Positions 3,833 through 61,047 of a stretch of DNA of 64,000 nucleotides are shown here, piece by piece. Each line of letters begins with the position of its first letter. Within the stretch, counting starts at the first letter, position 1. The notes under the pieces were generated by a model that searched no databases, was not told where the DNA came from, and worked only from the letters and a program-made list of their open reading frames with translations. The stretch is from a virus. A program made the position numbers and the translations under genes. Location: positions 18,802 through 82,801 of IMG/VR virus record IMGVR_UViG_3300046458_000091; one strand, given 5' to 3'.

Positions 3833-5053
3833 ATGCCTCTCACGCAGAAGTTTGTACAAACCCACACCGAACCTGGGCGTTATGCTGATAAAAACGGTTT
3901 GATGCTTTGCATCTCTCCACGCGGGTCCAAATCGTGGATCTGCCGCTATCAGCTCAACAAAGTTCGGCGCGATGCAGGCCTGGGTGTCTACCCAGCGGTC
4001 TCGCTCGCTAACGCGAGAGCCAAGTGTCTTGAGCTGAAATTGAAGCTCGCCAACGGCATTGACCCGCTGGAAGAGAAGCGCCGCAACGTCCGGGCGAACA
4101 TCACGTTCAAAGACGAAGCCATGGCGATGATCGAACGCTATCGCCTGGGCTGGTCCGAAAAGCACACCAGCCAGTGGGAAAACTCCCTGCGGGACCATGT
4201 TTATCCGTTTATTGGCTCGGTGCCGATCGCCGACGTAGACACGGATAAAATCGTTGAGCTGCTCGACCCGATCTGGCGTGAAATGCCGGAGTCAGCCCGC
4301 CGTATCCGCAATCGAATTGAACGTATATTGGACTTTTCGAAAACCTGCGGGCACCGCGAAGGGGAAAACCCGGCGCGCTGGGCTGGCCACCTGCAAAACA
4401 AGATGACCCGGGACAAGCCCGATTCCACGCCCCTGGAGTCGATGCCTTACTCGCGGCTGCCCAATTTCATGGAAAAGATCGAAGGCGAGATATCCCGGGC
4501 CGCGCGCTGCCTGCAATTCGTCATCCTGACAGCCTGCCGCAGTACTGAAGCCATGGGCGCTGAGTGGGATGAAATCGATTTCGAGACGCGCACCTGGGTG
4601 ATTCCGGCTGTCCGCATGAAGGGCCGCGTCGAGCACCACGTACCGCTCAGCGATGCCGCCATGCAGGTCCTCAAGGACGTGCACACCCGTGGCCGCAGCA
4701 AGCTGATTTTCCCAGGCCGTGACCTTGAGAAGATGATGCCCAACAACGCCATGCGCCGGGTACTGATCAAGCACGGGGAAAGCGCTACGCCCCACGGCTT
4801 CCGCTCGACGTTCCGCATGTGGGCTGCTGAGAAAACGAAATTCCCGAATGACCTGTGTGAGATTGCGATTGCTCACGTCGTGGGCACTGCCACATCACGG
4901 GCTTACAACAGGGGGAATATGCTGGAGTTAAGGCGCCCGCTCATGGAACGGTGGGCTAAATATGCCACGTCCCAGAGCATTGCGCCCCGGAGCCTGGACG
5001 ATAGAGTCAGGGCTTCCGCCCCCCGTGAACACGTTATGCACGGACATGCGTAA
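3833..5053 (+). CDS. Tyrosine integrase, P4-like with arm-binding N-terminal domain
   Basis: PGRYAD.NGL.L...GSKSW...GLGVYPAVSLA; catalytic R (TACR), HGFR, H (IAH), Y (RAYNR). Confidence 0.95.
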   Translation: MPLTQKFVQTHTEPGRYADKNGLMLCISPRGSKSWICRYQLNKVRRDAGLGVYPAVSLANARAKCLELKLKLANGIDPLEEKRRNVRANITFKDEAMAMIERYRLGWSEKHTSQWENSLRDHVYPFIGSVPIADVDTDKIVELLDPIWREMPESARRIRNRIERILDFSKTCGHREGENPARWAGHLQNKMTRDKPDSTPLESMPYSRLPNFMEKIEGEISRAARCLQFVILTACRSTEAMGAEWDEIDFETRTWVIPAVRMKGRVEHHVPLSDAAMQVLKDVHTRGRSKLIFPGRDLEKMMPNNAMRRVLIKHGESATPHGFRSTFRMWAAEKTKFPNDLCEIAIAHVVGTATSRAYNRGNMLELRRPLMERWAKYATSQSIAPRSLDDRVRASAPREHVMHGHA

Positions 5054-5106
5054 CGAGCCCACAAGGATGAGGTAAGCACTGGCGACCATTGAGGTCGCCG
5101 GGGCGC

Positions 5107-7935: not shown

Positions 7936-8650
7936 CGACCTCTGGCACCTCCTCGCCGGGCGTCTCAGACACCTTGGCGGCCACCAGCCCGTACTGGCTG
8001 GTGACGACGTGCATCAGGTGCGCGGCGGTCATGGTCGCGTCCATGTAGGCGTCAAAGAACGCGCAGAATTTGCGGTCCTTCATCCTGCGAATGGGGGTGA
8101 TGCGCTCCACCAGCGCGGCGGCATACGACGCATCGTCGATGTAAACCAGCGGCTCATCGTCAACGCCGCGCACGCACGCCGCCATGGACGCGCACCACCA
8201 GCTGTAATCGGTGGCCTGGTACACGCCATCGTCTATGAGCGTCTCGATGGCCTCAGCCTGGTAACCCAGCATCGGGCTGAAAATCAGCGATTCCCCCCCG
8301 AACTGGAACGGGATATCGGCGACGTAATCGGTCTGTTCCAGGATGTAATCGGCATAGAACGTCTGCCGGGTGTCGCCCTTTTCATGCAGCGGGAAGTTCG
8401 GACCATCGTCGCGGGTGCCGCTCATGTAGCTGGCCACCACATGCATGCGCTCATTGACCGACCAATGCCGGGGGTCGGCCACGGCGCCTGGCCGGTCAAT
8501 CGGCTTGCAGATGAAGCTCAGCAGCTTGGAGATGGTTCGCTGCTCATGTACCGCTGGGATTTCACACAGCGCCTGAATTTGATCCATCTCCAGCTCTTCC
8601 ATGTTCACGGAGATGCGACGGGTGTTAACCGGGTTGATGTACTTATTCAT
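7868..8650 (-). CDS. Tail morphogenesis protein, candidate tail assembly chaperone
   Basis: 260 aa, last gene of the tube operon, overlapping the +1 ORF. Confidence 0.55.
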   Translation of the reverse strand: MNKYINPVNTRRISVNMEELEMDQIQALCEIPAVHEQRTISKLLSFICKPIDRPGAVADPRHWSVNERMHVVASYMSGTRDDGPNFPLHEKGDTRQTFYADYILEQTDYVADIPFQFGGESLIFSPMLGYQAEAIETLIDDGVYQATDYSWWCASMAACVRGVDDEPLVYIDDASYAAALVERITPIRRMKDRKFCAFFDAYMDATMTAAHLMHVVTSQYGLVAAKVSETPGEEVPEVVTARFPAHSCISERARQIMGFV

Positions 8651-9366
8651 AGGGCGCCAAATGAGTCGTGTTGCGTGAAAGTGAGGTTGAGCGCGGTGAA
8701 TTCGTCAGTGCTTCGCGAGAGGTTGACCTCACACGACACAGGGACCATGACCCAGCTCTTGGAGTAGCCCCGGCTTTCCTCAACGGCGCCGTGGGTGATC
8801 TTGATGGTGTTTACGTAATCGCTCGGGACAGCAAAGGAGCCGTCCTTTGGCGTGGCGACGGCTTGCAGCTCGTCAAACCAGCTCTTGATTTCGCCATCGG
8901 CGTCGTAACAGACGATGCGCAGCTCTACCGGGTCGTTACCGGTAGGCGCCAGCGTGAAACCCGACCCGATCTTGATCGGCTCCCACCCCAGCTGGACGCT
9001 GTTGTAGGTGACCTCGGTGGACAGCAAGTTGACTCGCGGCGCGCTGATCTTGCCCACCGGGTCGATACCGATGTGCCAGAGGTTCGTGCGCTCGCGATTG
9101 ACCGCTGCCGCCTCTTCGTACATCTGAAGAACCGTGCTCCAGGACTGGCCAGCCAAAACGATGTTGCCGCCGCTGCCGCCGTTGAAGGCATTCGTGCGGC
9201 CAAAGATGTTGTCCGCGATCTTGTTTGCAGCGCCGTTCAGGTTGCCGCCCAGCAGATCCCGGGCAGCACTGGTGTACTTGAGTACGCTGCTGTCGATTTT
9301 GCTGGTGATCTTGTTCGTGACCGCATCAGTTGCTTGATAGGCCAGGCGTTCGAAGATGTTGCCCAT
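8647..9366 (-). CDS. Tail tube-like/baseplate protein
   Basis: Translationally coupled in the tail operon; tube-like C-terminus (EIKSWF...LNLTFTQ). Confidence 0.5.
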   Translation of the reverse strand: MGNIFERLAYQATDAVTNKITSKIDSSVLKYTSAARDLLGGNLNGAANKIADNIFGRTNAFNGGSGGNIVLAGQSWSTVLQMYEEAAAVNRERTNLWHIGIDPVGKISAPRVNLLSTEVTYNSVQLGWEPIKIGSGFTLAPTGNDPVELRIVCYDADGEIKSWFDELQAVATPKDGSFAVPSDYVNTIKITHGAVEESRGYSKSWVMVPVSCEVNLSRSTDEFTALNLTFTQHDSFGAL

Positions 9367-12290: not shown

Positions 12291-13937
12291 TTACGGGCGC
12301 ACGATGTTTTGCTGGTTGCTGATAACCCGGGCGGTGCCGACGTAAGACATGAATGTCTCGATGGCCATCCGTTCCATGGGTTGGTTTTCGCTCGGCTGGA
12401 TAGTGGCGTTGTAGGCGCCGCCGTCGAGTTCAGCGCTCGGTTGAAGCCAGCCCGCCGACTTCAGCGCTGGGAAAAACTTCGCTACAAAGTCTTCGGTTGT
12501 CTTGACTGCCTGATCCATTGGCTTTTGCAGGGCTTGCTGAGCCACGGCTGCAATCGTGTCGTCCACGTAAGTCGCCATTTCCACAACGGCGATGAGCTTG
12601 GTGGCGCCCTCGGTTTTCGCGCCGGTCAGGGAGTCCCACCAGACGAAATTGCCGCCGCTCACGTAGTCCACATAGAACACAGGGTTGATACGGCTGGCCG
12701 CCAGGGTTTCCAGGTCGTCCGATTCCAGCTCTACGGTCTGGATCATGCCGGTACGGGTAACCGCGAAATCACTGCCCGCGATCACGACATTGCGTTTTGC
12801 GATGCCCTTGGCGTTGACCACTGCGTTACGCGCGCAGCGCAGGCCGATGTTCAAGCCGGACGTGCCGATGAAAGCCTGGCCACCCGCTGCCGGATTGGTA
12901 GCCGTGAACGGGGCCCAATAGCACTGGCTGTAGATGATGTCGGTATCGCCGCCTACGGAGTCGTAGAAGTTAACGGCAGCCTCAACGCTGAAGCGGCCCG
13001 GGATGTCCCACGGCACCTGGCGGTTGATGTCCTTGCCCAGCTGGAGCAGGCGAGAAAGCAGCGCAACGCTTTCGGTGCCGCCAGAGCCAATGTAGGTGAA
13101 CGAAGGCTTGGCACGGCGCAGGCGCGCTACAGCAGCGTCCAGGTCGGCATTGGTGTACAGCGTCGGGCCTTCAGTGAAGTACTGGAGCGGCGAGCCAGAG
13201 AAAATATCCTTGTTGCCGGTCTTGCCGTAGAACACGCAGGTCGGCGGGATAACCGCGTCCAGCGCCACATCAGTCACCAGCAGCAGGTCGGTGTACTGGG
13301 TCACGATGTCGGTAATGAAGTAGCTCTTACCGAATTCGTCCAGAGCAGCCGGATCAAGCGAGCCAGTGTAAGGACCCAGCACGATTTCGTTGGTATTCAC
13401 GTCACGCAGTTGCAGGGTGACGATTTTGGAGGCCTGGGCCACGCCCGCGTCATTTTCAACCGCGACAGCATGGATTTCGGGCTGCACGCCCTCGCTGAAG
13501 CATTCCAGGTGCTTGATGGCCAGCAGATCACCTGCCGACAAGCCCACCTCTTCATCGACCAGTTTCCATACCGGCGTTGCAGTAGCGCCCTGGGCCGGGG
13601 GCAAGGAAGCGGTGGCCACCATCAGCTGGTTCTTAGCGCTGGCACTAACCAGACGCGAGACAACGGCCTGTACGGTGCCCGCCTTGAGGGCTTCATAGAT
13701 ATGAACGTAGGGCTGCGCCAGGGCGCTGGCCGACATCGACTGAGCAGCGCCCAGCCAGCGGGTTTGCTTGCCCTTGGAAACCGCAAAGGCCTTGTCAATG
13801 CGCCCACGGCTAAAGCGGCCAGTGATGGCCATGTTGTGCGCCACAGTGTTGGTGCTGGGCTGTTCGGACATGTCGTTGATCGGGTACAGCAGTACGCCGG
13901 AACGCTTGTCGATGGTGCGCGAGAAAGGAATGGTCAT
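12291..13937 (-). CDS. Contractile tail sheath protein
   Basis: 548 aa, GRFSRGRIDKAF.V, LAASRINPV, YVGTARVI; position after the capsid gene as in P1. Confidence 0.8.
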   Translation of the reverse strand: MTIPFSRTIDKRSGVLLYPINDMSEQPSTNTVAHNMAITGRFSRGRIDKAFAVSKGKQTRWLGAAQSMSASALAQPYVHIYEALKAGTVQAVVSRLVSASAKNQLMVATASLPPAQGATATPVWKLVDEEVGLSAGDLLAIKHLECFSEGVQPEIHAVAVENDAGVAQASKIVTLQLRDVNTNEIVLGPYTGSLDPAALDEFGKSYFITDIVTQYTDLLLVTDVALDAVIPPTCVFYGKTGNKDIFSGSPLQYFTEGPTLYTNADLDAAVARLRRAKPSFTYIGSGGTESVALLSRLLQLGKDINRQVPWDIPGRFSVEAAVNFYDSVGGDTDIIYSQCYWAPFTATNPAAGGQAFIGTSGLNIGLRCARNAVVNAKGIAKRNVVIAGSDFAVTRTGMIQTVELESDDLETLAASRINPVFYVDYVSGGNFVWWDSLTGAKTEGATKLIAVVEMATYVDDTIAAVAQQALQKPMDQAVKTTEDFVAKFFPALKSAGWLQPSAELDGGAYNATIQPSENQPMERMAIETFMSYVGTARVISNQQNIVRP

Positions 13938-14368: not shown

Positions 14369-15035
14369 ACATCACCTGCAAACCCAAAAGGTTGTTCCAC
14401 TTGTGCGCCCGTGCACTGCTGGTCAGCGCCTTGCTGAGCTTCGCCCACTGCACCTGGTCAACCTCGACCGCGACAGTCCCGTAGGCGGGAATGGCAACGT
14501 TCGGCCCGGCCACTGCAAAGCGGTCTCGGGTGTTGTTGGTAAGGGTCACAGTGGCGGGGAAGTCAGCGATTTCAGGCAGCACCCACCCTGTAAAAGGTAC
14601 GGCACCGGAATCGGTGTTTTTGGCAGGGGTTTGCGCCCGTTGCGCGTCTTCAGCAATGGCCAGATCCCAGGCTTTCGCGTCGTTGCGCTCGCCGTCTTCA
14701 TGGATGGCGTCATCCCAAGCGGCCAGGCCTTCCGTGCGCAGGGCGTCATAAGCACGGGCCTCATCCTCTGCAAGAGCCATCGCAGCGGCGTCAGCGGCTG
14801 CCGCGTCGGTCAGGCGTTTCAGTTCGGCAGCCGGATCGGCATCACCACCACCCGAGCCATCGCCACCCTCGGGCCCGGACCCACCTGGTGGAGCGCCCGC
14901 ACCTGGAGCAGGTGCGGCAGCGCCAGGCGTTGCGCCTGGCTCTTTAACTTCATCCTTCGCGCCAGCGGCGCCCGCCTTGGGCGCCTTGGCGGCAACGGCC
15001 TTATCCGTTGCCTTTTTAGTCGTAGTGCCAGCCAT
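14352..15035 (-). CDS. Hypothetical virion protein (low-complexity N-terminus)
   Basis: Directly downstream of the capsid gene with an RBS. Confidence 0.65.
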   Translation of the reverse strand: MAGTTTKKATDKAVAAKAPKAGAAGAKDEVKEPGATPGAAAPAPGAGAPPGGSGPEGGDGSGGGDADPAAELKRLTDAAAADAAAMALAEDEARAYDALRTEGLAAWDDAIHEDGERNDAKAWDLAIAEDAQRAQTPAKNTDSGAVPFTGWVLPEIADFPATVTLTNNTRDRFAVAGPNVAIPAYGTVAVEVDQVQWAKLSKALTSSARAHKWNNLLGLQVMYDSKD

Positions 15036-15048
15036 GACGGCCCCCTGA

Positions 15049-16731
15049 TCAGGTCAGTGCAAACACGTTCTTGATGGTGATCAGCGCGCAACCCAGGGCC
15101 GAAGCCTTGTGCGGGTTGGCTTCAGTCAGTTGACGACTGAACAGCGCAGCACCGGTTTTCAGGTCGGAATTGACCGCCAGCGGGATCAGGGTCGGCGAGA
15201 CCGCATCAGAGAAGACAATCGGGTTACGCGCCACTTGCGGGGAGCGGCCGATGCACAGCATCTCGATGTCGGTCTCGGTTTCTTCGACGACATACGGGTC
15301 ATAGATGACGTCGTATTTGCCCTTGTAGCGGCCCACGCGCCAGAAGCCAGGCTTCGCGTCAACGCCGGACGATACGAAGTCGTTGCTGTCCATCGACAGG
15401 AACTGAGCCATACCGATAGCGCCCACGTAGATGAACGCCAGGCCGTATTCCATGGTGGTGTTGGCCACCGCCTGGTCAACAGCCGCGACGAACGAACCGA
15501 AGTCGCGCCAGCCCTGCGCACGGGTCTTCTGGAGCAGCATTTCAGCCGCGTTGAAGTCGTAAGTGCGGTGGGTGTTCTTCGCCAGCTTTTTGACCTTGCG
15601 CAGAGCCGCGATATAGCGCTCGTTGGCCAGCTGAGTACGCGCTGCCTGGACCGCGATGGTCAGGCGGTCGGCGCCCAGTTCCGACTGGGACTGGCTACGC
15701 GAATCAGGGGTGGCCTGCATGATCACGCGCGAGGGCGCGCAGTACAGGGAGAAGCTGGTAGCGATGGTGCCAATGTTCGGCGCCAGGGCTGGGTTTTGCT
15801 CGAAATCGATAAACGCCTGTGCGTCTACATCGACGTCCGCAGGCAGCGCCGTAGCGAACGCCAGAGAGCCCACGCCGGTTTTTACGTTGATTACACCGGT
15901 AATGGAGTAATCGGTGCCGCCCGCCGAAAAGGAGCCGACCAGATTGGAGTTGTCAGTGCCGGAGTTGTTGGACTGCTCGAAAGCAACCGAAAAACCGTTA
16001 ACTGCGATGGTGGTGCGGTTACGCAGCACAGGTACGGTGCCGCCAGCGCCACCGCTTTGGGTGGTAATGGCAAAGGTGCCGCTCTTGCGGTCGCCCGCGA
16101 TGGTCACCGGCACAACACGTTCAGAACGGGTGTACTCCTGGCCACCGGCCACGCCGTCGATGATGTCACCCGCTTTGTAGGCGCCGAAGGTGGAGCCTGC
16201 AATGGAGGTAATGATTGCCAACTTCGACTCGTTAGAGCTGAGGTCGGACGGCAGGTAAGCGCCGAACGGAATCGCCTCGCTCAGACCGCCAGTGATGGCC
16301 ACCGCGATGCGGTTCGGCTGGTGCGACAGGGACGCCGACGTGTTGTTGGTACTGATGCTGTCGAGGGTGACGCCATCGGGCAGGACGTTGGTGGCCTTGC
16401 CGTCAGAGATGTTTTCGGCCTGGGACAGAACGGCGTCCAGCAGGTCGGCGGACGGGGTGAAACCGTGTTGGCGTTCGAAGGCGTTGATGCCGTCGAGCAT
16501 GGAGGTTACGGCCAGGGCCTTGTTCTGGTCGCCGTCGATACGGTCCAGCAGGCGGCGCATGCGTTCAGGGGCCAGGCGTGCAGCGTCGGAGACAACGTTT
16601 TTCACAACGTCTTGGGATGCCGGGCTCAGGCTGTCGAGCATTGCGCCGTTATTACGGGCTGCCGCGACCATCGAACCAACTCGTTCCTCGACTTCGTACA
16701 AGCCGGAGTCGGGCGCGTAAAGATTGGGCAT
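15049..16731 (-). CDS. Major capsid protein precursor (P1 gp23-like)
   Basis: 560 aa, strong GAGG RBS, late promoter, N-terminal prodomain with MLD motifs. Confidence 0.8.
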   Translation of the reverse strand: MPNLYAPDSGLYEVEERVGSMVAAARNNGAMLDSLSPASQDVVKNVVSDAARLAPERMRRLLDRIDGDQNKALAVTSMLDGINAFERQHGFTPSADLLDAVLSQAENISDGKATNVLPDGVTLDSISTNNTSASLSHQPNRIAVAITGGLSEAIPFGAYLPSDLSSNESKLAIITSIAGSTFGAYKAGDIIDGVAGGQEYTRSERVVPVTIAGDRKSGTFAITTQSGGAGGTVPVLRNRTTIAVNGFSVAFEQSNNSGTDNSNLVGSFSAGGTDYSITGVINVKTGVGSLAFATALPADVDVDAQAFIDFEQNPALAPNIGTIATSFSLYCAPSRVIMQATPDSRSQSQSELGADRLTIAVQAARTQLANERYIAALRKVKKLAKNTHRTYDFNAAEMLLQKTRAQGWRDFGSFVAAVDQAVANTTMEYGLAFIYVGAIGMAQFLSMDSNDFVSSGVDAKPGFWRVGRYKGKYDVIYDPYVVEETETDIEMLCIGRSPQVARNPIVFSDAVSPTLIPLAVNSDLKTGAALFSRQLTEANPHKASALGCALITIKNVFALT

Positions 16732-24625: not shown

Positions 24626-24856
24626 TTACCGGTCGGCCAGCCTTTCCAGGGCGTACTGAACCGGGTATGGGGCTGTTGAGGTTTTCGGGTCACTACTGAG
24701 GTACAAACGCAATACACGCGGGTCAATGCCGATAGTCTGCGCCGCAGCGACTTGGGTAAGGCCGCTGGCGGCGATCAGCTCGCGCAGGTACAACGGGTCA
24801 GGATTATGCAGCCTGGCGTCGGGCTTGACTGTGGCGCCTGCTTTTTTAACCGGCAC
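24626..24856 (-). CDS. aca1: Anti-CRISPR-associated Aca1-family HTH repressor
   Basis: KPDARLHNPDPLYLRELIAASGLTQVAAAQTIGIDPRVLRLYLS...APYPVQYALERLA closely parallels Aca1 as I recall it (PDASNHDPDPRYLRGLL...APYTVQFALECLA); GTG start with GGAG RBS. Confidence 0.85.
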   Translation of the reverse strand: MPVKKAGATVKPDARLHNPDPLYLRELIAASGLTQVAAAQTIGIDPRVLRLYLSSDPKTSTAPYPVQYALERLADR

Positions 24857-25346
24857 TGCTGGGCTCCAGATCGGCTGTAGGCTGGATGATGGTATTGAAG
24901 AGGTCCGCGATTGCTTCAGCACGGACCACCGCCAGCGTTTCAGAACATTCGTCGCAGCCCAGCACGAAAAGACAAGTAACTTCGTTGGTGCGCAAGCGCC
25001 CCTCAGGAACGCCGGAGCCATTCTTGTAATGCGTATCCCAGGTCAAGGCCGTGCTGTGGCATTCGCGGCATTCGCGGATTTTGCCGGTGATTGCATCCAG
25101 CAAACCGCCCCGCGCCTTGAGCACGTCACGTTCTTTGCCAAGTTCAGCATTCTCATGACGCTGCGCGGACATTTGAAGGCGGTGATCAGCAAGCAAAATC
25201 AGTGGATCTGCCACGGCATAGTGTTCTGGCTTGCTGGTTAGGAGTACTTCAATATCTGGCGCCATCTCACCGGTCACGCGATAACCGATTATCTCTGGCT
25301 CTTCCTCGGCGCCCGACTGCTTAAACTTCTGCTCTGGCGTGTTCAT
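24846..25346 (-). CDS. Hypothetical phage protein with CxxC...CxxC zinc ribbon
   Basis: CRECHS...GCDECSETL; immediately upstream of aca1. Confidence 0.7.
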   Translation of the reverse strand: MNTPEQKFKQSGAEEEPEIIGYRVTGEMAPDIEVLLTSKPEHYAVADPLILLADHRLQMSAQRHENAELGKERDVLKARGGLLDAITGKIRECRECHSTALTWDTHYKNGSGVPEGRLRTNEVTCLFVLGCDECSETLAVVRAEAIADLFNTIIQPTADLEPSSAG

Positions 25347-25638: not shown

Positions 25639-25681
25639 CAATATAGGTAATATTTACCTAATGTACAAGCTTTTATTCAGG
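25639..25681 (-). promoter_or_regulatory. Sigma70 promoter with palindromic operator (copy 1)
   Basis: Minus strand TTGTAC-N17-TATATT with TAGGTAA-N3-TTACCTA in the spacer. Confidence 0.85.
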
Positions 25682-25741
25682 ATAAAGAAAAGCCCGGAAT
25701 AACCGGGCTCCTGGTGCAACACTTTCGCGAGCTGGCAGCGC

Positions 25742-26098: not shown

Positions 26099-26488
26099 TT
26101 AGTTTCTCTGTTCCTCGGTACTGGTCGCCCGCAGCTTCGCTATGACTTCCTGGAAGCTTGAGTGCAGCACCGGCCACCCCTTCCCCGGCGCCAGGGCCGA
26201 CGCATCCAGGCGGCGTATAGAGACGGCAAGGCGTACCCGAGGGTGCACATGTCCGACCGTCGCCAGCCAGCCCGCGCAAGCGACCTCGCCGCCTTCTTTG
26301 GACTGGTGACAGGCGAACAGGCTGTCAGTGTAGGACGGCCCGAACCCTTCGGCGCAGGGGCTGGTTTTAGCCAGGCCCTCAGCCTTGGCCAGGGAGAACG
26401 CCGGGATATCGGTGGCGTCCTTGTCTGTCCGCCACGGGCAGCCTAGGCACGGTTTGGCGATCCTAGGAAACTCGGCTTGATCAAACAT
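26099..26488 (-). CDS. DUF6283-like Cys-rich protein
   Basis: PCLGCPWR...FACH...CAGWL. Confidence 0.7.
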   Translation of the reverse strand: MFDQAEFPRIAKPCLGCPWRTDKDATDIPAFSLAKAEGLAKTSPCAEGFGPSYTDSLFACHQSKEGGEVACAGWLATVGHVHPRVRLAVSIRRLDASALAPGKGWPVLHSSFQEVIAKLRATSTEEQRN

Positions 26489-26741
26489 ACGCTTCAACTA
26501 GGCATTCGCCGCGATGCTTGTATTCCGCGATCCCAGAGCCTACGCGCACGCCGACAGCGGGCTGCATGTACCCATTCGACTGGTCCCAGTCCTCAATGGC
26601 CTGATCAATCTGGGCATTGGTGACGTTGAACCGCTTTGCCGCCTCGCGAAACGTCGGGTAGCTCGCCCCCTTGCCGTCCGCCTCAGCTTTGGCGGCGTAC
26701 TCGCAGGCGTAGTCAAAAAGGGCTTTCGGTGTGATGGCCAT
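26481..26741 (-). CDS. Hypothetical small protein, possible HTH
   Basis: YPTFREAAKRFNVTNAQI. Confidence 0.6.
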   Translation of the reverse strand: MAITPKALFDYACEYAAKAEADGKGASYPTFREAAKRFNVTNAQIDQAIEDWDQSNGYMQPAVGVRVGSGIAEYKHRGECLVEAYV

Positions 26742-26753
26742 GATCTTCCCCTA

Positions 26754-28028
26754 TTACTCTTCAGGCAGGCCCAGGCTGGCAGCCGTGACGCCCAGCAGTC
26801 CCGCCCATTTTTGCCCCATCGTCACGACATACGCAGACTCAGACGGCGAAAGGGTCTCAACGGCTTTTATCGCATAGTCGAGCACGCGATGTCCGGCGTT
26901 GGGGGCAATGATACTCATCTTGCTGCCCGGCTCCAGCAGCTGGCCCTCGACGATCTGCGTGCCGACCCATGTGCGCCCCTGGAACGGCTGGCAGTCAATG
27001 ACGATGCCGTCACGGACATACCACTCTGTGAAGTCCTGGCCACGGTCCTCCAGGGAAATGTGCTGCACCAGCACAGGCGCTGCCGGTGTCATGTCGGCGC
27101 TCGCTGCCACATAGGCCGCGTGCTCAAGGAAAACCATGGCCAGCGGGTCCCACTGATCCAACAGCACAAGGTCTTCCTCAGCCATTTCAGCGCGCGGCGT
27201 CAACAAATACCGGCCCAATTCGTCAAAGTGACACGGCAACGGCGTCTTAGTGGCGAACCGATCATAGGAGGCTGGATTCAGGGTTACCCGCCGATCCTTC
27301 ACCGCCTCGACCGCGTGAACGTTGCACTGCGCGCGTAGGTTCAGGAACCGCTTACGGTAGTCGCTTGAATTAGGGCGCTCGCCCAAACGGCTGCGTACCA
27401 GAAGCTTGAGGCCCAGCCGTTCAAGAATCTTGATGAACTGAGCGCCAAGGCCGGACACATCGACCAGCACAGTGCAGTTTTTGTACTCGTTTGCTGTCGC
27501 GGCTACTACGGCGGCCATCTGCAACAGATCATCAGAAAACGAATCCAAAACGCCCGCTACTTCCTCGACACAGCGGGGCTCTTTGGCCATCCGGTCGCCA
27601 TTGCCAAAGACGCGAAACAATGTCGCCACCGTCCGTTCACGCATCACGCCTGCGCCCACAACAACCGAAATCAGGTAGCCGGATGACTCGCCAGGCCTGA
27701 TAACGCTGCCGGGCTCATGTGACAGGCAAGGCTGCAACTCTTCAGGCCTCAACAGGCTGTTGGCGGCTACTGGCTCCTTGGCCTCCACTGCGGCCTCATC
27801 ATCCGCGACCGGCGTGCAGTGATCCAGGCTGACGCAACCGGATTTGCCCTCTAACCAAATCACAGCGGTGCGGCCGCTCAGTACCTGGGCTTCGCTCTTG
27901 GTCCGGCCGCGAAAGGTTTCGCCCTCGCCCACAATTTCCTCATAGGAAACCATGGCGCCCTCTTTGTATTTCGCGTTCCAGGCATCGCAAATGGCTTGCA
28001 GCTCTGGGTTTGCTTTCACTGTTGCCAT
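26754..28028 (-). CDS. Three-part fusion protein containing a degenerate terminase nuclease domain
   Basis: Central region aligns by eye to the C-terminal half of the 57375-58940 terminase. Confidence 0.8.
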   Translation of the reverse strand: MATVKANPELQAICDAWNAKYKEGAMVSYEEIVGEGETFRGRTKSEAQVLSGRTAVIWLEGKSGCVSLDHCTPVADDEAAVEAKEPVAANSLLRPEELQPCLSHEPGSVIRPGESSGYLISVVVGAGVMRERTVATLFRVFGNGDRMAKEPRCVEEVAGVLDSFSDDLLQMAAVVAATANEYKNCTVLVDVSGLGAQFIKILERLGLKLLVRSRLGERPNSSDYRKRFLNLRAQCNVHAVEAVKDRRVTLNPASYDRFATKTPLPCHFDELGRYLLTPRAEMAEEDLVLLDQWDPLAMVFLEHAAYVAASADMTPAAPVLVQHISLEDRGQDFTEWYVRDGIVIDCQPFQGRTWVGTQIVEGQLLEPGSKMSIIAPNAGHRVLDYAIKAVETLSPSESAYVVTMGQKWAGLLGVTAASLGLPEE

Positions 28029-28086
28029 GGGGCTTTTCCTTTCAATCTCTGGGGTGATTGAACGCCGTTGACCGGCGCCTGGGGCA

Positions 28087-28851
28087 TTACTTTTTCGCCG
28101 GAGCGGCCAGCAAAGGCAGAGCCCCGTTTGTAATGGCGAGCTGAAGCTTGGCAGGATCAGAAAAGAACGAATCCATGGTCCGGGCCATCGTACAAATTGC
28201 CGTCAACGATTCAGCAAAGAACCGAGCCGCTTCCTCGGTGTATGGCATCGAATCCAGGGAGGCGTAGTTTTTCTTCGTCGTGCACTTGATGAAGTGATTG
28301 AGACGAAACGCCCACTCCATTCCCTTGAGCGGGCCATGGTTTCCGGTATCTGCGTATTCAAACTCTGTTTTAGTACTGTTGGCGCGCTTATGAGTCACAC
28401 GATCAACGACTTCAGCGAATAGACCAATCCCAAACGGGCCGTGAGTATCTTGACTGAATGACAGGCGATTACCGACCTTCGACCACTGACCATCCTTTGC
28501 ATTGCTGCCGTTTGGATGGATGGACCCGTCTAAGCACTCCCAGTACGAAACCCGCAGATCGATGTCATAAACAATGACCCGCTCCCGCGTTGTTTCAACG
28601 CTAAGGTGTTCCTGCATCAGTTTTTGAACGTGACGCTTTGCTGTATCCAGGTCGCGGTGCTCGACGCGCCAGTTCTTCCGTGGCTTGGTGATGGCGATGT
28701 TCGCCGTTCGGGTGAGTACCACATCTGCCAGTTCGTCCGGGATGACGATGGCAAACACTCCTTGTCCATCTACTGAACATTCGGCCACGAACTCCATGAC
28801 CTCCCCTGTTGCATTCTCATGCCTGAAGGGGATTTTCGGCATACTCGCCAT
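28087..28851 (-). CDS. Hypothetical protein
   Basis: 254-aa ORF in the early accessory operon, somewhat lower GC. Confidence 0.7.
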   Translation of the reverse strand: MASMPKIPFRHENATGEVMEFVAECSVDGQGVFAIVIPDELADVVLTRTANIAITKPRKNWRVEHRDLDTAKRHVQKLMQEHLSVETTRERVIVYDIDLRVSYWECLDGSIHPNGSNAKDGQWSKVGNRLSFSQDTHGPFGIGLFAEVVDRVTHKRANSTKTEFEYADTGNHGPLKGMEWAFRLNHFIKCTTKKNYASLDSMPYTEEAARFFAESLTAICTMARTMDSFFSDPAKLQLAITNGALPLLAAPAKK

Positions 28852-29884: not shown

Positions 29885-29927
29885 CAATATAGGTAATATT
29901 TACCTAAAGTACAAGCTTTTATTCAGG
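29885..29927 (-). promoter_or_regulatory. Sigma70 promoter with palindromic operator (copy 2)
   Basis: 42/43 identical to 25639-25681. Confidence 0.85.
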
Positions 29928-29977: not shown

Positions 29978-32005
29978 TCAGAAAGTGCCAGCCGTGGCCT
30001 TGAGCGCATAGGTGGCATAGGCGTCTGAGGCCTCGATAAACAGCTCTCGCAGCTCGCCCTCCCCGTAGGCTGCATAGATGCGTTCCATCTCCTTGAGCAC
30101 GTCCGCAGGCGCGCCCAGATCGGTGGAACCTTCAATGATGCTGTCCAGGTACTCTTTTGCCTTCTGCACTTGCTCATCCTCGGTTGGGTCTGGTGGTGGT
30201 TGTACCGCTTCAGGTTGCGGCGGTGGTTGATCGGTCTCCGGCTCCGACGTTGCCGCCTGGCGCACGGCTTCGGCCGCCTCCTGGGGCGTCTTGCCATCGG
30301 CGAACAGCTGGCCGGTCAATGCTTCTTGAGTCATGGCCACGGCCTGGGCGTCACCATCGGACGCCTCCAGCAGTTCGGCCAGGGTCTGGATAAAGGCCTC
30401 ATCCCACGCCGGGCGCAGCAACACAGGCGCGGGCTCTGGCACTTCAGGTGCAGTCTGTTGCTGATCGGCCAGGGCTTTGGCGTCCGCTTCTGCCTTCGCA
30501 TCCACAGCGGCCAGCCCAGCGCCATCCGTACCGGCCTTGGCCGCCCGCACCAGCGCCCCGCCCACGTCGGCCATGATTTCGGCCTTGGTGACGGCTGCCG
30601 CGTCCAGCTTGAACCCGGCCTTGGTCAGCAGCTCGCGCAGGTCATCCTGGCTGTCGATGCCCTCAATCACCTTGAGCGCGGCGTCGATATCGCCAGCCTT
30701 CAGGCCGTCCGTGAATTTGGCCAGGTCGTCGCGGGTATCTTCCGGTGGCGGTGGCTCGGGGAATAAGCCCGGCTCACCACCTGGCGGCGTGGCCTTTTTC
30801 TTCTCCAGCTGGGCGGTCAGGTCAACAATCTGAGCGTCCAGGTCGGCCAACTGGGCGGTTTTGCTGTCTACGGCCGCCTTCGCCTCAGCCAGCGCCGCGT
30901 CGTCAGCGGCCTTGTTCTCGTTGGCCTTACCGAACTTCGCGCTGTTCTTCTGCACCAGCGCCATGATGCGCCGGGCAACGATACGCGGGTTCAGATCCTG
31001 GCCGCGCTCGGGCGCCACGGTGGCGGTAATGTCCCGCTTGTTCAGTACCCATTTCCAGCTGATCAGTTCATCACTGGCCATGAGCTTGTTCGGCGTGCTG
31101 TCCGGGTTGTGGAAGAACACCGACACGCTCTGGCCGTCATCCATGGAGAACAGCATGCCCACCTGGGTGGTGCCACGGCTCTTGAATGGCTTGCTGACAT
31201 CGACGCTTTCCGCCTTCACGTCGCCGCCCACGTTCTGCATCACGCGCAGCAGCTGGGAGGCCTTGCGGTCGAACTGCTTGTACTCGATCACCATGGCATC
31301 CAGCATGCCGTCGTCGCTCAACTCCTGGGCGATGTCATCCATGGTGGCGCTGTCCATCATCAGGCTGTCGGCGTCATTGCGGCGCAGCTCGTACAGCAGG
31401 TCCGCTACGGTGGTGTCTACCGGCAGGTTGTCGGCGCCCCAGCGCGCGAATACGTCAGTCATGCTCAAGGTCTCATCTTTGGGGATATTGGGGAGGTCGG
31501 CGCTCAGTGGCTGGCTGAGGTCGCCATGCTTGAGCCAGTACTTGAACTGGGTGACGGTGCAGGCAGTCATGCTGCCCAGGCCTTGCCACCCGCGTTCATA
31601 GGAATTCATGTAGGCGTTGCGGGCCTGTTCCTCATCCATGAACCCAAGCATTACCTTGTGCTCATCAAACGAGCCGTCAGCGGCATTCTGGTTGACCACG
31701 TACACGGCCTGGCTCTCTGGCGCCGGGCCAACGTAGATGTCCACCGCGTCACCGTCCGCGCCCTTGGTGCCGTTCACATACCCGTAATGCGCCATACAGG
31801 TGATTGACCACGCCTTACCGTCGCTCTTGCCACGGCGCGGCTGGTGCATCGGTGTCTCGATGGTGATGCGCATCCCGTGGAGCTGCGTGGAGCCCTTGGC
31901 ATAGTTACCGGCCCGGATCTGCTCCGGCGTCGGTTCAGCGGTTGACCCCAAGCCGAACGCGCCCGCGTGTGCGGCACTTTGAAGATTGCTAAAAATGTCG
32001 GTCAT
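29978..32005 (-). CDS. darA: DarA-like antirestriction virion protein fused to an N-terminal inorganic pyrophosphatase-like domain
   Basis: GNYAKG...HYGY..GT.GADGD.VD...FDEHKVMLGF; DGQSVSVFFHNPD...WKWVLNKRDITATVAPE; helical C-terminus. Confidence 0.8.
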   Translation of the reverse strand: MTDIFSNLQSAAHAGAFGLGSTAEPTPEQIRAGNYAKGSTQLHGMRITIETPMHQPRRGKSDGKAWSITCMAHYGYVNGTKGADGDAVDIYVGPAPESQAVYVVNQNAADGSFDEHKVMLGFMDEEQARNAYMNSYERGWQGLGSMTACTVTQFKYWLKHGDLSQPLSADLPNIPKDETLSMTDVFARWGADNLPVDTTVADLLYELRRNDADSLMMDSATMDDIAQELSDDGMLDAMVIEYKQFDRKASQLLRVMQNVGGDVKAESVDVSKPFKSRGTTQVGMLFSMDDGQSVSVFFHNPDSTPNKLMASDELISWKWVLNKRDITATVAPERGQDLNPRIVARRIMALVQKNSAKFGKANENKAADDAALAEAKAAVDSKTAQLADLDAQIVDLTAQLEKKKATPPGGEPGLFPEPPPPEDTRDDLAKFTDGLKAGDIDAALKVIEGIDSQDDLRELLTKAGFKLDAAAVTKAEIMADVGGALVRAAKAGTDGAGLAAVDAKAEADAKALADQQQTAPEVPEPAPVLLRPAWDEAFIQTLAELLEASDGDAQAVAMTQEALTGQLFADGKTPQEAAEAVRQAATSEPETDQPPPQPEAVQPPPDPTEDEQVQKAKEYLDSIIEGSTDLGAPADVLKEMERIYAAYGEGELRELFIEASDAYATYALKATAGTF

Positions 32006-56794: not shown

Positions 56795-56955
56795 TGCCGG
56801 GCGCCCTTGGCCATGCGCGCCAGCCGGTCGATTTGGGTCTTTGCCTTGAGCAGCTGCACGGCGTGAGCCCGTACAGCGCGGATCTGACCCAGGCGGTACG
56901 CGCCAACCAGGCTGAAGACAAAGAACACAGCGGCGCCCACGCCCCACCAGATCAT
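56791..56955 (-). CDS. Small membrane protein (54 aa)
   Basis: Manually read MIWWGVGAAVFFVFSLVGAYRLG..., ATGA-coupled at both ends; below the ORF track cutoff. Confidence 0.6.
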   Translation of the reverse strand: MIWWGVGAAVFFVFSLVGAYRLGQIRAVRAHAVQLLKAKTQIDRLARMAKGARQ

Positions 56956-57302
56956 TGCTTAGTACCTGCGGGAAGGCGCGCAAGGCTCGCCTCAACCTCC
57001 TGGCGAAACTCTTCGGGGGTCAGCATGGTGGTGTCCACCAGCCGTTCGGCCAGATTCTCAGAAAGCTTGGCGTTGGCCGCCCGCAGCTCTTCAATGGTGG
57101 CCAACTGGTCGTCCAGGATGTTAGCCATCGCGTCGAGCCAACGCCGGTCAACCTTGGCGGGATCACGCTGTAGCACGCCCAGGGCATCAGCCATCAGCGT
57201 CGTGTCGCCGGAGCTGGCGCCTATGCCGCGCAAGGCATCCTGCTTGATTCTGGACAGCCAGCCGACTGTTATCGGCCCCTGATGAACGAGCGTGCTACTC
57301 AT
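56952..57302 (-). CDS. Hypothetical protein
   Basis: First gene after an AT-rich intergenic region. Confidence 0.6.
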   Translation of the reverse strand: MSSTLVHQGPITVGWLSRIKQDALRGIGASSGDTTLMADALGVLQRDPAKVDRRWLDAMANILDDQLATIEELRAANAKLSENLAERLVDTTMLTPEEFRQEVEASLARLPAGTKQ

Positions 57303-57374: not shown

Positions 57375-58940
57375 CTATGTGAGCCCAGCCATAACCGCCC
57401 GCGCCGCCTCCAAGGCCAACTTGCGCCGGTCGCTGGCGTTGTCGAACGACTCGCCCTGTGCAGGCACGTAATCGACGCCTTCCAGGAAGGCCATGGCCAG
57501 CGTGTCCAGGAGGTCGGGAGATGGCAGGCCCTCGGCGGCCATGTCCTGCTTGCGGGCGATGTGGTAGCGCCCCAGCTCATCCAACACGTAGGGGATACGG
57601 CTGGCTTGGTCGATCAGGTCCTTTTTGTACTTGCTGCTCAGGCGCACCACGCCATCCTTGACGGCCTCGACGAAGTGCACCGTTGATTGCGCGCGCTGGT
57701 TGAGGAAGCGCTTGCGGTACTCGTTGCTGAACGGCAGTTCGCCCCAGCGCACGCCCTTGACGTGGATACCGCCGCCAGACAGCTCCACCAGCCGCTTGAG
57801 GAACTGGTTACCCATACCGTTGGTATCGACAATGATGGTCACGTTGCTGAACGCTGCGGCGTAGTCCAGGACCTTGCGCGCCACGGGCGTCCAATCCTCG
57901 GTGTTCGTGTACACCGGCACGTCTACAACCTCGATACGGCGCCGGTCGGCGGTCATCCGGTCGCCGTTGCCTATCATCTTCAGGTGAGTCGCCACCGTCT
58001 TGTCTCGGCCTACGCCCGCCGCGACGTCCACGATGATGACGTGGCCAAAGGCTTCGCCCGGCAAGATGACGTGCGGGCCTTCAATGACGTGCTCCAGGGC
58101 GGCCTGGCTGAGCAGGTACTTGCTGGAGTTGGTCGGGAACATGCCCCGGACCTTAATTTGATACTCGACCTCATCCCGGCCGCCGTACTGCTGAAGCTTC
58201 TCTTTGATGAACGCCACACCGACAAGCGTGCTTTCCTCAGAACTGAACGTGAGGTTTGTCCAGGGGCCGCCCTGGCGCACGCTGTTGTTGTGGTGGGAGT
58301 CACGGAAAAACCCGCTGTTGCGCGTCGGCTGGGACGCCATGACGAAGCGGTTGCGGGGGTCTGTGAGTGCGCCCCCGATCACGCCAAAGTTTTCATCAGC
58401 GATGCCAGATGCTTCGTCCGCCAGCCACATCAAGTAATCGGCGTGCGTACCTGCCAGGTTCTCCGGCGAGCCACGCGGCGCTGTACGGGTGGTGACGTAC
58501 CAAATGGCGCTTTTTAGGTTCACGTAGACCTTTTCGGCCTGGATCGTGAAGTAGTCGGCAATCCAGGCATGCGGGCCTTTCTCAATCATCGCCTTGAGGG
58601 TGGTGATTTCTTTCCACACGCCCTCTCGCACCGTCTTGAGCTTCGGCGCGGTGATGTAGGTGTTGGAGTTGCGGTAGCAGAGCAGGTGCCATAGGGCGAT
58701 GACGCCAAAGCTGCGCGTCTTGCCGGTGCCGTGCCCAGACGCCACCGACACCCGACACCCGTACTTGGATGCGGCGTCGAACAGCTCTTGCTGCTGGTGG
58801 GTGACCGGCTTACCTGTGATACCCATCCCGCACACCTCTACGGCGAAGCGGTACAGGTCGAAGGCGTAGCGTTCAACGAATGCAGGCCAGCGCGGGTCAG
58901 CATCCAGCGCCAATTTTCTTTGTTTTTTCGCCTTGGCCAT
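57375..58940 (-). CDS. pacB: Terminase large subunit
   Basis: VSVASGHGTGKT Walker A, LADEASG Walker B, SQPTR, IIVDVAAG and PDLLD nuclease aspartates. Confidence 0.92.
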   Translation of the reverse strand: MAKAKKQRKLALDADPRWPAFVERYAFDLYRFAVEVCGMGITGKPVTHQQQELFDAASKYGCRVSVASGHGTGKTRSFGVIALWHLLCYRNSNTYITAPKLKTVREGVWKEITTLKAMIEKGPHAWIADYFTIQAEKVYVNLKSAIWYVTTRTAPRGSPENLAGTHADYLMWLADEASGIADENFGVIGGALTDPRNRFVMASQPTRNSGFFRDSHHNNSVRQGGPWTNLTFSSEESTLVGVAFIKEKLQQYGGRDEVEYQIKVRGMFPTNSSKYLLSQAALEHVIEGPHVILPGEAFGHVIIVDVAAGVGRDKTVATHLKMIGNGDRMTADRRRIEVVDVPVYTNTEDWTPVARKVLDYAAAFSNVTIIVDTNGMGNQFLKRLVELSGGGIHVKGVRWGELPFSNEYRKRFLNQRAQSTVHFVEAVKDGVVRLSSKYKKDLIDQASRIPYVLDELGRYHIARKQDMAAEGLPSPDLLDTLAMAFLEGVDYVPAQGESFDNASDRRKLALEAARAVMAGLT

Positions 58941-60444: not shown

Positions 60445-61047
60445 TTAATCCCCGACCTTTGCGGCCCGCGCTTGCATCATCAAATCCGCGTACTGCCAGC
60501 GCAGTTGAACAAGGCGTTCGAGGTCGCCAGGCTCGTTAGGAAAGCCGCCATGCGAGAAGGGCGCATGTACGGCGAAGTCATCGCGCAAATCGCTCAGGTA
60601 CTGCTTGTCGGCCTGATATTGGCGCTCAAGGGCTTGTTGTTCCCGTGCCCGCTTCTTGTCAGTCGCCAGAGCCACGCTCTCCGACATGATTTGATCGGCA
60701 GAGCGCGGCGTACGGCGGTCGATCACCGGCCGGGCCGGGGAGGGGGCTGTGCTGCCCTTGAGCGTGGTCACGTCAGCACCAGCCACCAACAGCGTGCTGG
60801 GCGAAGTAGCCGTGATGTACGCATCTATCAGCGGACGCATGGCTACCGGCGTGACCGCAACACCGGCCTTGCCGCGCTCGACGGGGAGCCAGCGCTTGCC
60901 ATCGATACGCACATGGAAGTGCTGACCGGCACCACCATCACGCACCGCGACACCGTAGTTTTCCAGCCAGGTACGGAACCCCGGCATCTGTTCAGGCTGC
61001 AACAGCCCTGCATCGTTGGTTTTGATATCGCCAGCAACTGCGTTCAT
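60445..61047 (-). CDS. Hypothetical protein
   Basis: AGGAG RBS; C-terminal LRDDFA..A...W.YAD.M..AR motif. Confidence 0.65.
   Translation of the reverse strand: MNAVAGDIKTNDAGLLQPEQMPGFRTWLENYGVAVRDGGAGQHFHVRIDGKRWLPVERGKAGVAVTPVAMRPLIDAYITATSPSTLLVAGADVTTLKGSTAPSPARPVIDRRTPRSADQIMSESVALATDKKRAREQQALERQYQADKQYLSDLRDDFAVHAPFSHGGFPNEPGDLERLVQLRWQYADLMMQARAAKVGD

Follow-up and report, generated by a model that had tools for sequence, protein, structure and literature searches.

A predicted catalytically disabled terminase nuclease module inside an accessory protein of a Pseudomonas phage-plasmid

Among the protein triggers of bacterial pattern-recognition immunity the best known is the large terminase subunit (TerL), which is sensed by Avs1-3, and how phages escape recognition of this indispensable protein is a standing question. 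Proteins described as acting against such sensing, or on TerL itself, include the DruSM1 ORF55 ligase, the Smf-like DruSM1 ORF83 and the PLE protein Gpi, and none of these is described as a TerL homologue in the available parts of their sources. Here we describe ORF424, a protein of 424 amino acids (aa) encoded by an open reading frame (ORF) on the minus strand at 26754..28028 of a 64,000-nucleotide (nt) stretch of viral DNA (positions 18,802 to 82,801 of IMG/VR record IMGVR_UViG_3300046458_000091; this whole stretch is called the window, and coordinates given without another label refer to it). The carrier is a Pseudomonas phage-plasmid with a record size of 82,801 bp, recovered from a rhizosphere metagenome. 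ORF424 is a chimeric accessory protein made up of an N domain, an inserted pseudo-nuclease and a C domain, and the sequence argues firmly for a TerL-nuclease module in it that is under selection, is catalytically disabled and comes from a lineage-specific family. If ORF424 shared the aim of ORF55, ORF83 and Gpi, be it escape from TerL sensing or interference with TerL, it would do so by mimicking the trigger itself.

The closest described relatives of the inserted module are the nuclease domains of TerLs such as P1 PacB and Sf6 gp2. In Sf6 gp2 the metal-binding triad consists of D244, D296 and D444, with D244 contacting both metal ions, as given in the available portion of PMC4678813. The ORF424 domain is homologous to TerL throughout the C-terminal domain and keeps the VDxxGxG and DxxD motifs. 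It differs in having no ATPase domain, no TerL tail, no first Asp, no Asp in the RDKT loop and none of the invariant Trp, Lys and Ser residues, and also in being embedded in an unrelated protein and evolving faster. For the operon, the nearest described counterparts are the acr-aca1 operons of Pseudomonas Mu-like phages and the Dar operon of P1, with which it is compared below.

ORF424 and its terminase-like insert

The window encodes a PacB-type TerL of 521 aa at 57375..58940 (minus strand), in which the conserved acidic residues are all intact. This protein matches phrog_2, 'terminase large subunit' (E=1.6e-28), is 36-37% identical to PacB of P1, P7, D6 and their relatives over 92% of the length (E 4e-80 to 6e-76), and is 39.5% identical to TerL of Xanthomonas phage Rb1. 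None of the Pfam and NCBIfam terminase models detects it, and curated families therefore represent this lineage poorly; for ORF424, TerL and their neighbours these collections gave no family apart from RHH, DUF6283 and DarA/InPase. A preliminary description of ORF424 had proposed a co-linear match to the PacB nuclease domain, and BLASTP recovered this match with the proposed coordinates right to within ~50 nt. Residues 99-312 of ORF424 (27093-27734) align with TerL residues 279-497 (57450-58106), with 94/219 positions identical (43%), 5 gaps and E=6e-43, and the alignment contains each of the blocks that had been quoted (GNGDRM, YRKRFLN.RAQ..VH.VEAVKD, DELGRY and LAM.FLE). The nuclease-like domain also matches the TerLs of Rb1 and ABMM1. 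At the DNA level no relative of ORF424 was found in the phage collection.

The substitutions at acidic positions that had been read from the sequence were present in the alignment as well. The TerL motif IIVDVAAG is ISVVVGAG in ORF424, and V123 (codon at 27660..27662, minus strand) stands at the position of D305, the invariant first active-site Asp. RDKT is changed to RERT, with E131 (codon at 27636..27638, minus strand) at the position of the invariant D313 of the RDKT loop. The second and third acidic positions are retained, as had also been noted: TerL D372 corresponds to D190 in LVDVSG, and D476 and D479 to D291 and D294 in LDQWD.

Two small domains flank the terminase-like part, in line with the earlier description. 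The N domain (residues 1-80; 27789..28028, minus strand) is of the phrog_9165 type, with residues 6-73 matching that PHROG profile at E=5.4e-16, and the C domain (residues 316-424; 26757..27083, minus strand) is of the phrog_27241 type, with residues 323-397 matching at E=2.2e-13. Between them lies the linker insert (residues 81-315; 27084..27788, minus strand), whose core at 27093-27734 is TerL-nuclease-like and, from its residues, apparently catalytically dead. That ORF424 has no ATPase domain was borne out, as its first 80 residues are the phrog_9165 domain and neither BLASTP nor the family searches gave an ATPase match. The insert is also without the conserved C-terminal tail that TerLs have beyond the nuclease domain. 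An Atlas model of the whole of ORF424 had a pTM of 0.55 and a pLDDT of 0.67.

Relatives of the flanking domains normally have no such insert. With the C-terminal 109 residues as query, there were 40 shorter homologues among 66 candidates, and these are either stand-alone proteins of 103-109 aa or proteins of 180-199 aa from P. viridiflava, P. syringae and Pseudomonas sp.; in 8/8 of the longer homologues examined the N domain is joined directly to the C domain. In relatives the N domain is found in its own gene of 80-130 aa or as the N half of these N+C proteins, which are normally 180-199 aa long and have a linker of about 5-20 residues. One of them, P0083 (184 aa), matches ORF424 in two blocks. 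Residues 9-75 of ORF424 align with residues 11-77 of P0083 (67% identity, E=7e-29), and residues 299-421 with residues 68-184 (49% identity, E=2e-34), the second block reaching into the P0083 linker. The interdomain distance is ~235 residues in ORF424 and ~5 in P0083, so ORF424 lacks the short linker of its relatives, and in a 41-row alignment the N+C proteins span a gap where ORF424 has the insert. We therefore regard ORF424 as an N+C protein with a foreign domain in its linker, that is, as a predicted chimera of a two-domain Pseudomonas phage/phage-plasmid accessory protein and a linker insert of ~235 residues.

Searches of profile, family, PDB and Atlas collections linked the N and C domains to no known function. 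The N+C profile gave a chance-level match only in a PDB sequence search, in which no sequence of a solved anti-CRISPR (Acr) structure was matched, and the N+C alignment scanned over genome contigs returned two distant C-domain loci only. The Atlas gave leads at the level of fold only: the N domain resembles hypothetical proteins of small size and, in some CsrA proteins, the C-terminal extension, while the C domain has a weak resemblance to GreA-C or a Tudor-type barrel. In superpositions, the Atlas model of the N domain fits the C-terminal extension of CsrA-family 'regulatory proteins' of 123 aa with a TM score of 0.72. It also fits the last ~60 residues of a malonyl-CoA:ACP transacylase, and the same transacylase was weakly matched in the PDB sequence search (3g87, E=0.1).

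A family of pseudo-nucleases in sister elements

An exhaustive, profile-free search with ORF424 residues 95-320 as query found 72 representatives with E<=1e-3, and motif columns were read in an alignment of their domain parts together with P0002-P0005 and the resident TerL. All 32 of the proteins with at least 500 aa have the Asp of strand beta-1 and an RD in the next loop. This Asp is missing from 22 proteins that are also without an ATPase domain (20 of the 72 representatives, plus P0002 and P0004 from word-indexed searches). The first active-site Asp is thus present in 0/22 pseudo-nucleases and 32/32 full-length TerLs, which agrees with the consistent loss across homologues expected for a nuclease-dead mimic. 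The replacing residue is mostly Val, and it is Arg in the group of 402-439 aa. The Asp is kept in some short proteins, P0012, P0022, P0037, P0040, P0042 and P0043, which look like fragments of TerL.

Column statistics were compiled for 38 catalytic-type domains and 18 dead domains of the main clade. The catalytic-type domains have D305, D313, D372, W399, K464, S474, P475, D476 and D479 in 100% of cases. In the dead domains position 305 is never Asp (Val in 67%) and D313, W399, K464 and S474 are lost; P475 is kept in 50%, D372 in 89%, and D476 and D479 in 72%. Most family members have lost the TerL-invariant D313, W399, K464 and S474, and all of them the first Asp.

A TerL profile matched Sf6 gp2 in the PDB (E=3e-5, covering only the last ~50-70 residues), where it aligns with the active-site helix of gp2. 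TerL K464, D476 and D479 align there with chain residues 448, 461 and 464 of Sf6 gp2, which are K428, N441 and D444 given a construct offset of +20. Because the profile alignment stops short of D305, the equivalence of D305 with Sf6 D244 comes from motif order; the pseudo-nuclease profile found nothing relevant among the PDB sequences. If D305 corresponds to D244, the pseudo-nuclease family would be unable to carry out two-metal catalysis.

The origin of the insert was examined in a quick maximum-likelihood tree, which comprised the 60 domains that were complete and left out 17 fragments. A starred set of 22 rows holds 18 dead domains and four TerLs of this phage group, and the dead domains within it form two clades, of 8 rows (SH-aLRT 94) and 10 rows (SH-aLRT 97). 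Four more dead domains (P0038, P0058, P0059 and P0069) lie beside other TerLs, and the starred branches therefore require at least two origins. The tree rows nearest to ORF424, which itself has a long terminal branch (0.98), are P0004, P0006 and P0002; these are 50% identical to it and share the ISVVV motif, so the D-to-V change is common to them. In contrast, the ORF424 domain is 43% identical to its own TerL, against 42-43% for other TerLs. A recent origin of ORF424 by degeneration of a copy of the resident terminase is therefore rejected by tree placement and identities. The view of ORF424 as a nuclease-dead mimic copied from the phage's own terminase has accordingly to be divided: the dead mimic stands as far as the loss of the invariant Asp goes, and the derivation from the own terminase is contradicted by the tree.

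In IMG/VR scans we found sister elements with a TerL 67-75% identical to the resident TerL, and their pseudo-nucleases occupy several positions. In group B (L006, L007 and L008) a stand-alone pseudo-nuclease gene lies 50-80 nt downstream of terL (at 10001-10720 in L006). The pseudo-nucleases of L007 and L008 have a tail with a RGIGASSGDTLRL motif, and the homologue of this tail in the window is the 116-aa gene next downstream of terL (56952..57302, minus strand). The RIKQDALRGIGASSGDT motif carried by that gene reappears as the C-terminal tail of the stand-alone pseudo-nucleases of sister phages (17/19 identical, E=1e-8). In group C (L012, L013 and L014) the dead domain is in the middle of a 430-431 aa protein encoded ~2.3 kb upstream of terL. 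The group C carrier is a homologue of the 200-aa packaging-module protein encoded at 60445..61047 (minus strand), whose sister homologues with a mid-protein pseudo-nuclease are 402-439 aa long; P0020 of this group matches it at the N end (E=2e-4) and the C end (E=5e-10), and in L006-L008 the same gene has other middles.

Overall the pseudo-nuclease module has at least five architectures. Two unrelated two-part proteins have received it in their linkers, and fusions of the module to three or more other tails are also present. With ORF424 as query, 4/7 whole sister records have a second nuclease-like match (G003, G004, G005 and, weakly, W01, which is P. psychrotolerans plasmid CP018759.1), and no second match was found in the other 3/7 (G001, G002 and W02, P. 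putida pKF715C). Members of the family cluster are on 85-96 kb contigs and in Pseudomonas sp. genomes. Plasmid matches are mostly from Pseudomonas (86/140 records), and no record covers 80% of ORF424; its exact architecture was seen nowhere but in this genome and the ~96% variant. Searches for the loci of the closest stand-alone relatives (P0002, P0004 and P0006) gave no match, either in IMG/VR with P0002 alone or in GTDB genomes and JGI metagenomes with an alignment. The family is variably present among sister elements, where it is alone after terL, has other tails or is inserted elsewhere.

The ATPase domain of TerL has a parallel set of paralogues. A pseudo-ATPase of 240-260 aa is encoded directly upstream of terL in L006 (7546-8328), L012 (12761-13540) and L013 (12784-13506), and at approximate positions in L014 (~12797-13507), L010 (~4373-5068) and L015 (~8593-9153), and both its Walker A (SGHGTGKT) and its Walker B (DE) are destroyed. 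In sister elements the pseudo-nuclease module is often found next to such a pseudo-ATPase. Short C-terminal remnants of the pseudo-ATPase remain in L007 and L008. The genome of ORF424 has no pseudo-ATPase paralogue. We also considered whether the pseudo-ATPase is a PacA-like terminase subunit and rejected this, as P1 PacA is dissimilar (hhalign probability 0.1); P1 PacA likewise has no similarity to the gene upstream of the resident TerL.

Whether the domain is decaying was judged from variation and divergence. A variant of ORF424 is present in three runs of another study's rhizosphere metagenomes, with most of the ORF covered at ~94-98% nucleotide identity. The 21 listed substitutions (27091-27572) comprise 12 synonymous and 9 non-synonymous changes, giving a ratio of non-synonymous to synonymous polymorphism (pN/pS) of ~0.25 (140 synonymous and 430 non-synonymous sites) and a binomial p=0.0015 for the synonymous excess, values that rest on the listed part of the differences and on low-depth contigs (3-6). 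The listed differences include neither an indel nor a stop within the ORF. In the sister elements, the group C dead domain has a non-synonymous divergence (dN) of 0.26-0.34 against 0.04-0.07 for the TerL nuclease domain (L012/L013/L014 pairs), and its ratio to synonymous divergence (dN/dS) is 0.16 in one pair, with dS saturated in the other two of three. Dead modules thus evolve 5-7x faster than TerL. Every invariant or nearly invariant column of the family is preserved in the ORF424 domain. These results speak against neutral decay, and the sequence comparisons indicate that purifying selection maintains ORF424 and the pseudo-nuclease family.

The variant island is without the 86-aa gene (26481..26741), one contig joining 26464 to 26757 with 30 other letters between them. 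The island is therefore mosaic, yet ORF424 and its insert are kept. The variant contigs are also without cover over the 254-aa gene (28067-28821), and the variant island diverges just upstream of ORF424, which is kept at ~96% identity.

This family of disabled terminase look-alikes is previously undescribed, and all members seen are named 'hypothetical protein'. A literature search, supplements not included, turned up no account of terminase decoys, nor of terminase paralogues that are inactive or pseudo-enzymes. The word 'decoy' in the available parts of PMC11564622 and PMC13581612 is a mass-spectrometry term and does not refer to a terminase decoy. Whatever the role of the module, three findings are new in the searched literature: both terminase domains have pseudo-enzyme paralogues, one of these pseudo-domains was inserted repeatedly into the linkers of unrelated proteins, and such paralogues occur in a presumably Aca1-regulated island.

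Regulatory setting and possible functions of the module

The preliminary description had placed ORF424 in an Aca-linked setting behind an operator-controlled sigma70 promoter. A promoter-like element at ~29890-29925 follows a hairpin and T-run 3' of a darA-like gene and lies 1.9 kb upstream of ORF424, with three ORFs in between. The presumed promoter/operator (minus strand) consists of TTGTAC, the 17-bp palindrome TAGGTAAATATTACCTA at 29890..29906 and TATATT. Genes of the operon encode, in order, proteins of 151, ~137, 254, 424 (ORF424), 86, 132 (DUF6283) and 90 (RHH) aa, and the operon is closed by an intrinsic-terminator-like hairpin at 25688..25712 (minus strand; 10 pairs and a T-run). The palindrome and promoter recur as an exact copy at 25644..25660 (minus strand), at the head of the downstream operon, which has a 62-aa ORF, a 166-aa ORF and then an aca1-like helix-turn-helix gene (24626..24880, minus strand). 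The 17-bp palindrome gave 4 strand matches against 0.00 expected. The two promoter-like copies are each ~45 nt long, and each comes after a terminator-like hairpin.

The aca1-like product is 53% identical (E=7e-23) to JBD93 gp34, whose gene is directly after acrIF3, the aca1 position. The JBD93 acr promoter has a 17-bp palindrome with the same TAGG...CCTA arms, the same length and the same place, and in L018, L019 and L042 the gene just before the aca1-like one encodes an N domain. The JBD93-like palindrome, the aca1 homologue and these N-domain genes therefore support an Aca-linked operator-promoter at the level of sequence, and an acr/aca1-type promoter-operator appears to head the ORF424 operon. 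The locus is thus like the acr-aca1 operons of Pseudomonas Mu-like phages (JBD93 acrIF3-aca1) in its Aca1 homologue, in the TAGG-N9-CCTA palindrome between -35 and -10, and in the small uncharacterised genes just upstream of aca1. It differs from them in having two promoter copies and ~ten genes instead of one to three, in the RHH gene that ends the ORF424 operon, and in that ORF424 is not directly before aca1. Compared with the Dar operon of P1, the ORF424 operon is immediately downstream of a DarA-like gene (29978..32005, minus strand; InPase and DarA_N domains), however, it is set off from that gene by the hairpin and T-run and by its own sigma70-like promoter, and no homology of ORF424 to P1 Dar proteins was seen.

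Acr promoters give early, strong expression that is then repressed by Aca1, and Avs3 recognises both TerL domains. We hypothesize that the dead domain keeps the fold and surface of the TerL nuclease while being unable to cut DNA by the two-metal mechanism, and we infer that it would act by binding, as a harmless TerL look-alike. Its most likely target would be host immunity that recognises TerL, such as Avs1-3-like pattern receptors. The domain could occupy the sensor as a non-activating ligand, or it could attach to freshly synthesised TerL monomers and cover the surface that is recognised. In either case an early burst of expression, limited by Aca1, would load the cell ahead of late TerL synthesis.

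Five features jointly point to a role in conflict over one in core packaging: variable presence, several architectures, fast but constrained evolution, dead copies of both TerL domains, and an acr-type operon, which for ORF424 adjoins an anti-restriction (darA-like) gene. Direct binding of TerL by Avs sensors, with monomers apparently targeted, is described in the available portion of PMC13581612. Given these conflict-type features and the binding of TerL monomers by Avs, our leading reading, held tentatively, is that the module counters TerL-sensing immunity, acting either as a decoy that does not activate the sensor or by shielding nascent TerL. A broader proposal is more doubtful: that P1-like Pseudomonas phage-plasmids encode dead look-alikes of both the ATPase and the nuclease of their own immune trigger, serving as decoys or shields against Avs1-3, with the nuclease decoy as a portable module spliced into counter-defence proteins such as ORF424 under Aca1 control. 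The decoy, if real, would be the first viral 'self-PAMP decoy' (PAMP, pathogen-associated molecular pattern) known in prokaryotic immunity. The locus gives testable candidates for escape from TerL recognition, namely a conserved and selected family of dead nuclease domains together with the dead ATPase domains that form a family in sister elements, and these candidates occur in cultivable Pseudomonas phage-plasmids such as those of P. fluorescens (CP048608.1, 81 kb) and P. psychrotolerans (CP018759.1).

Several points weigh against a counter to TerL sensing. An Avs sensor that has bound a ligand should become active, unless oligomerisation is prevented. KpAvs2 is predicted to bind the ATPase domain of TerL, not the nuclease domain, and the available part of PMC11564622 reports this binding by co-immunoprecipitation. 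The retained D190, D291 and D294 may provide some metal- or DNA-related activity. The ORF424 domain is no closer to its own TerL than to others and therefore does not track its own TerL. Promoter use and timing are predictions from sequence, and the anti-defence label of the N and C domains is by association only. The grouping of the fast-evolving pseudo-nucleases could be inflated by long-branch attraction in the quick tree, and the pN/pS estimate has the partial, low-depth basis given above. Finally, the sister-phage modules are located inside the packaging gene cluster, which fits a packaging role equally well.

Such a packaging role is the strongest alternative, although we consider it somewhat improbable. 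The dead domain would bind a partner of TerL, such as the ATPase domain in trans, DNA ends, the small terminase subunit (TerS) or the procapsid, and would thereby regulate the phage's own terminase or poison that of relatives or satellites as a dominant negative; the preliminary description had likewise suggested a dominant negative against related phages. The stand-alone paralogues 50-80 nt after terL in L006-L008, some of which have a tail like the post-terL gene, are consistent with this, as is the insertion of the group C domain into a conserved packaging-module protein ~2.3 kb upstream of terL. There is also a precedent in PLE Gpi, which binds and blocks ICP1 TerL according to the available part of its source. 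However, variable presence in close relatives and 5-7x faster evolution are unlike a core motor part, and ORF424, which is 30 kb away from terL, has an acr-type promoter in front of it. A dominant negative would strike the phage's own TerL too. In other phages the C-terminal tail docks TerL to the portal, and the modules are without this conserved tail.

A second alternative, which we regard as unlikely, is that a stable RNase H-like fold was recruited as a scaffold for a job unrelated to TerL, for example as a DNA/RNA- or protein-binding spacer for the N+C protein, possibly anti-CRISPR-like, and for the other carriers. Insertion into the linkers of two unrelated two-part proteins, along with at least three other tails, would suit a general spacer. 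The kept D190, D291 and D294 and the RFxNxRAQ block could mean nucleic-acid binding, and the N-domain family sits just before aca1 even without the insert. Against this, the family is limited to one phage-plasmid TerL lineage and is usually in or beside packaging genes, and the parallel dead ATPase-domain paralogues point to biology related to TerL.

That the insert is a functionless recombination scar drifting to loss we consider very unlikely. The long terminal branch of ORF424 and the restriction of its architecture to this genome and the ~96% variant are what such a relic might leave. However, 424 codons remain in an intact frame, the variant has a synonymous excess and no listed indel, the invariant and nearly invariant family columns are all kept, and the derived motifs are common to relatives at 50% identity. 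Least probable of all is a nuclease that still cuts, for example host or rival DNA, from a rearranged site of E131, D190, D291 and D294: three conserved acidic residues remain, Glu replaces the RDKT Asp, and terminase active sites are known to 'drift' according to the available text of PMC4678813, however, the beta-1 Asp is missing in 22/22 pseudo-nucleases (mostly Val), K464 and S474 are lost too, and the Sf6 Asp equivalent by motif order ligates both metal ions in that same text.

Neighbouring genes and sister plasmids

In the DarA-like protein at 29978-32005, an inorganic-pyrophosphatase-like domain (PF18823) lies ahead of DarA_N (PF18788). Its homologue in L019 (3262-6996) is 1244 aa long and has a large additional C-terminal part.

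Homologues of the 60445-61047 protein are at 5632-6552 in L006, 6069-7160 in L007 and 6951-7976 in L008. The family has kept ends, NDxxLL..F..WL at the N terminus and DLRDDFA..P...RW.YA at the C terminus, around a hypervariable middle of ~60 to 230 residues, which is where the dead nuclease domain is found in group C.

In plasmid CP018759.1 the TerL match occurs twice, at 14785-15453 and 109027-109695, with near-equal scores, and the N-domain match also occurs twice, at 2554-2757 and 96794-96997. The paired matches are ~94 kb apart on a 114-kb circle, which might reflect either a large duplication or a faulty assembly.

Several TerLs of the lineage contain an intein with a Hint or homing-endonuclease domain (L002 8720-10693; P0003, P0008, P0017 and P0024). 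Judged by eye, the intein splits Walker A (SGHG-C...), and plasmid records name some of these intein-bearing TerLs 'Hint domain-containing homing endonuclease'.

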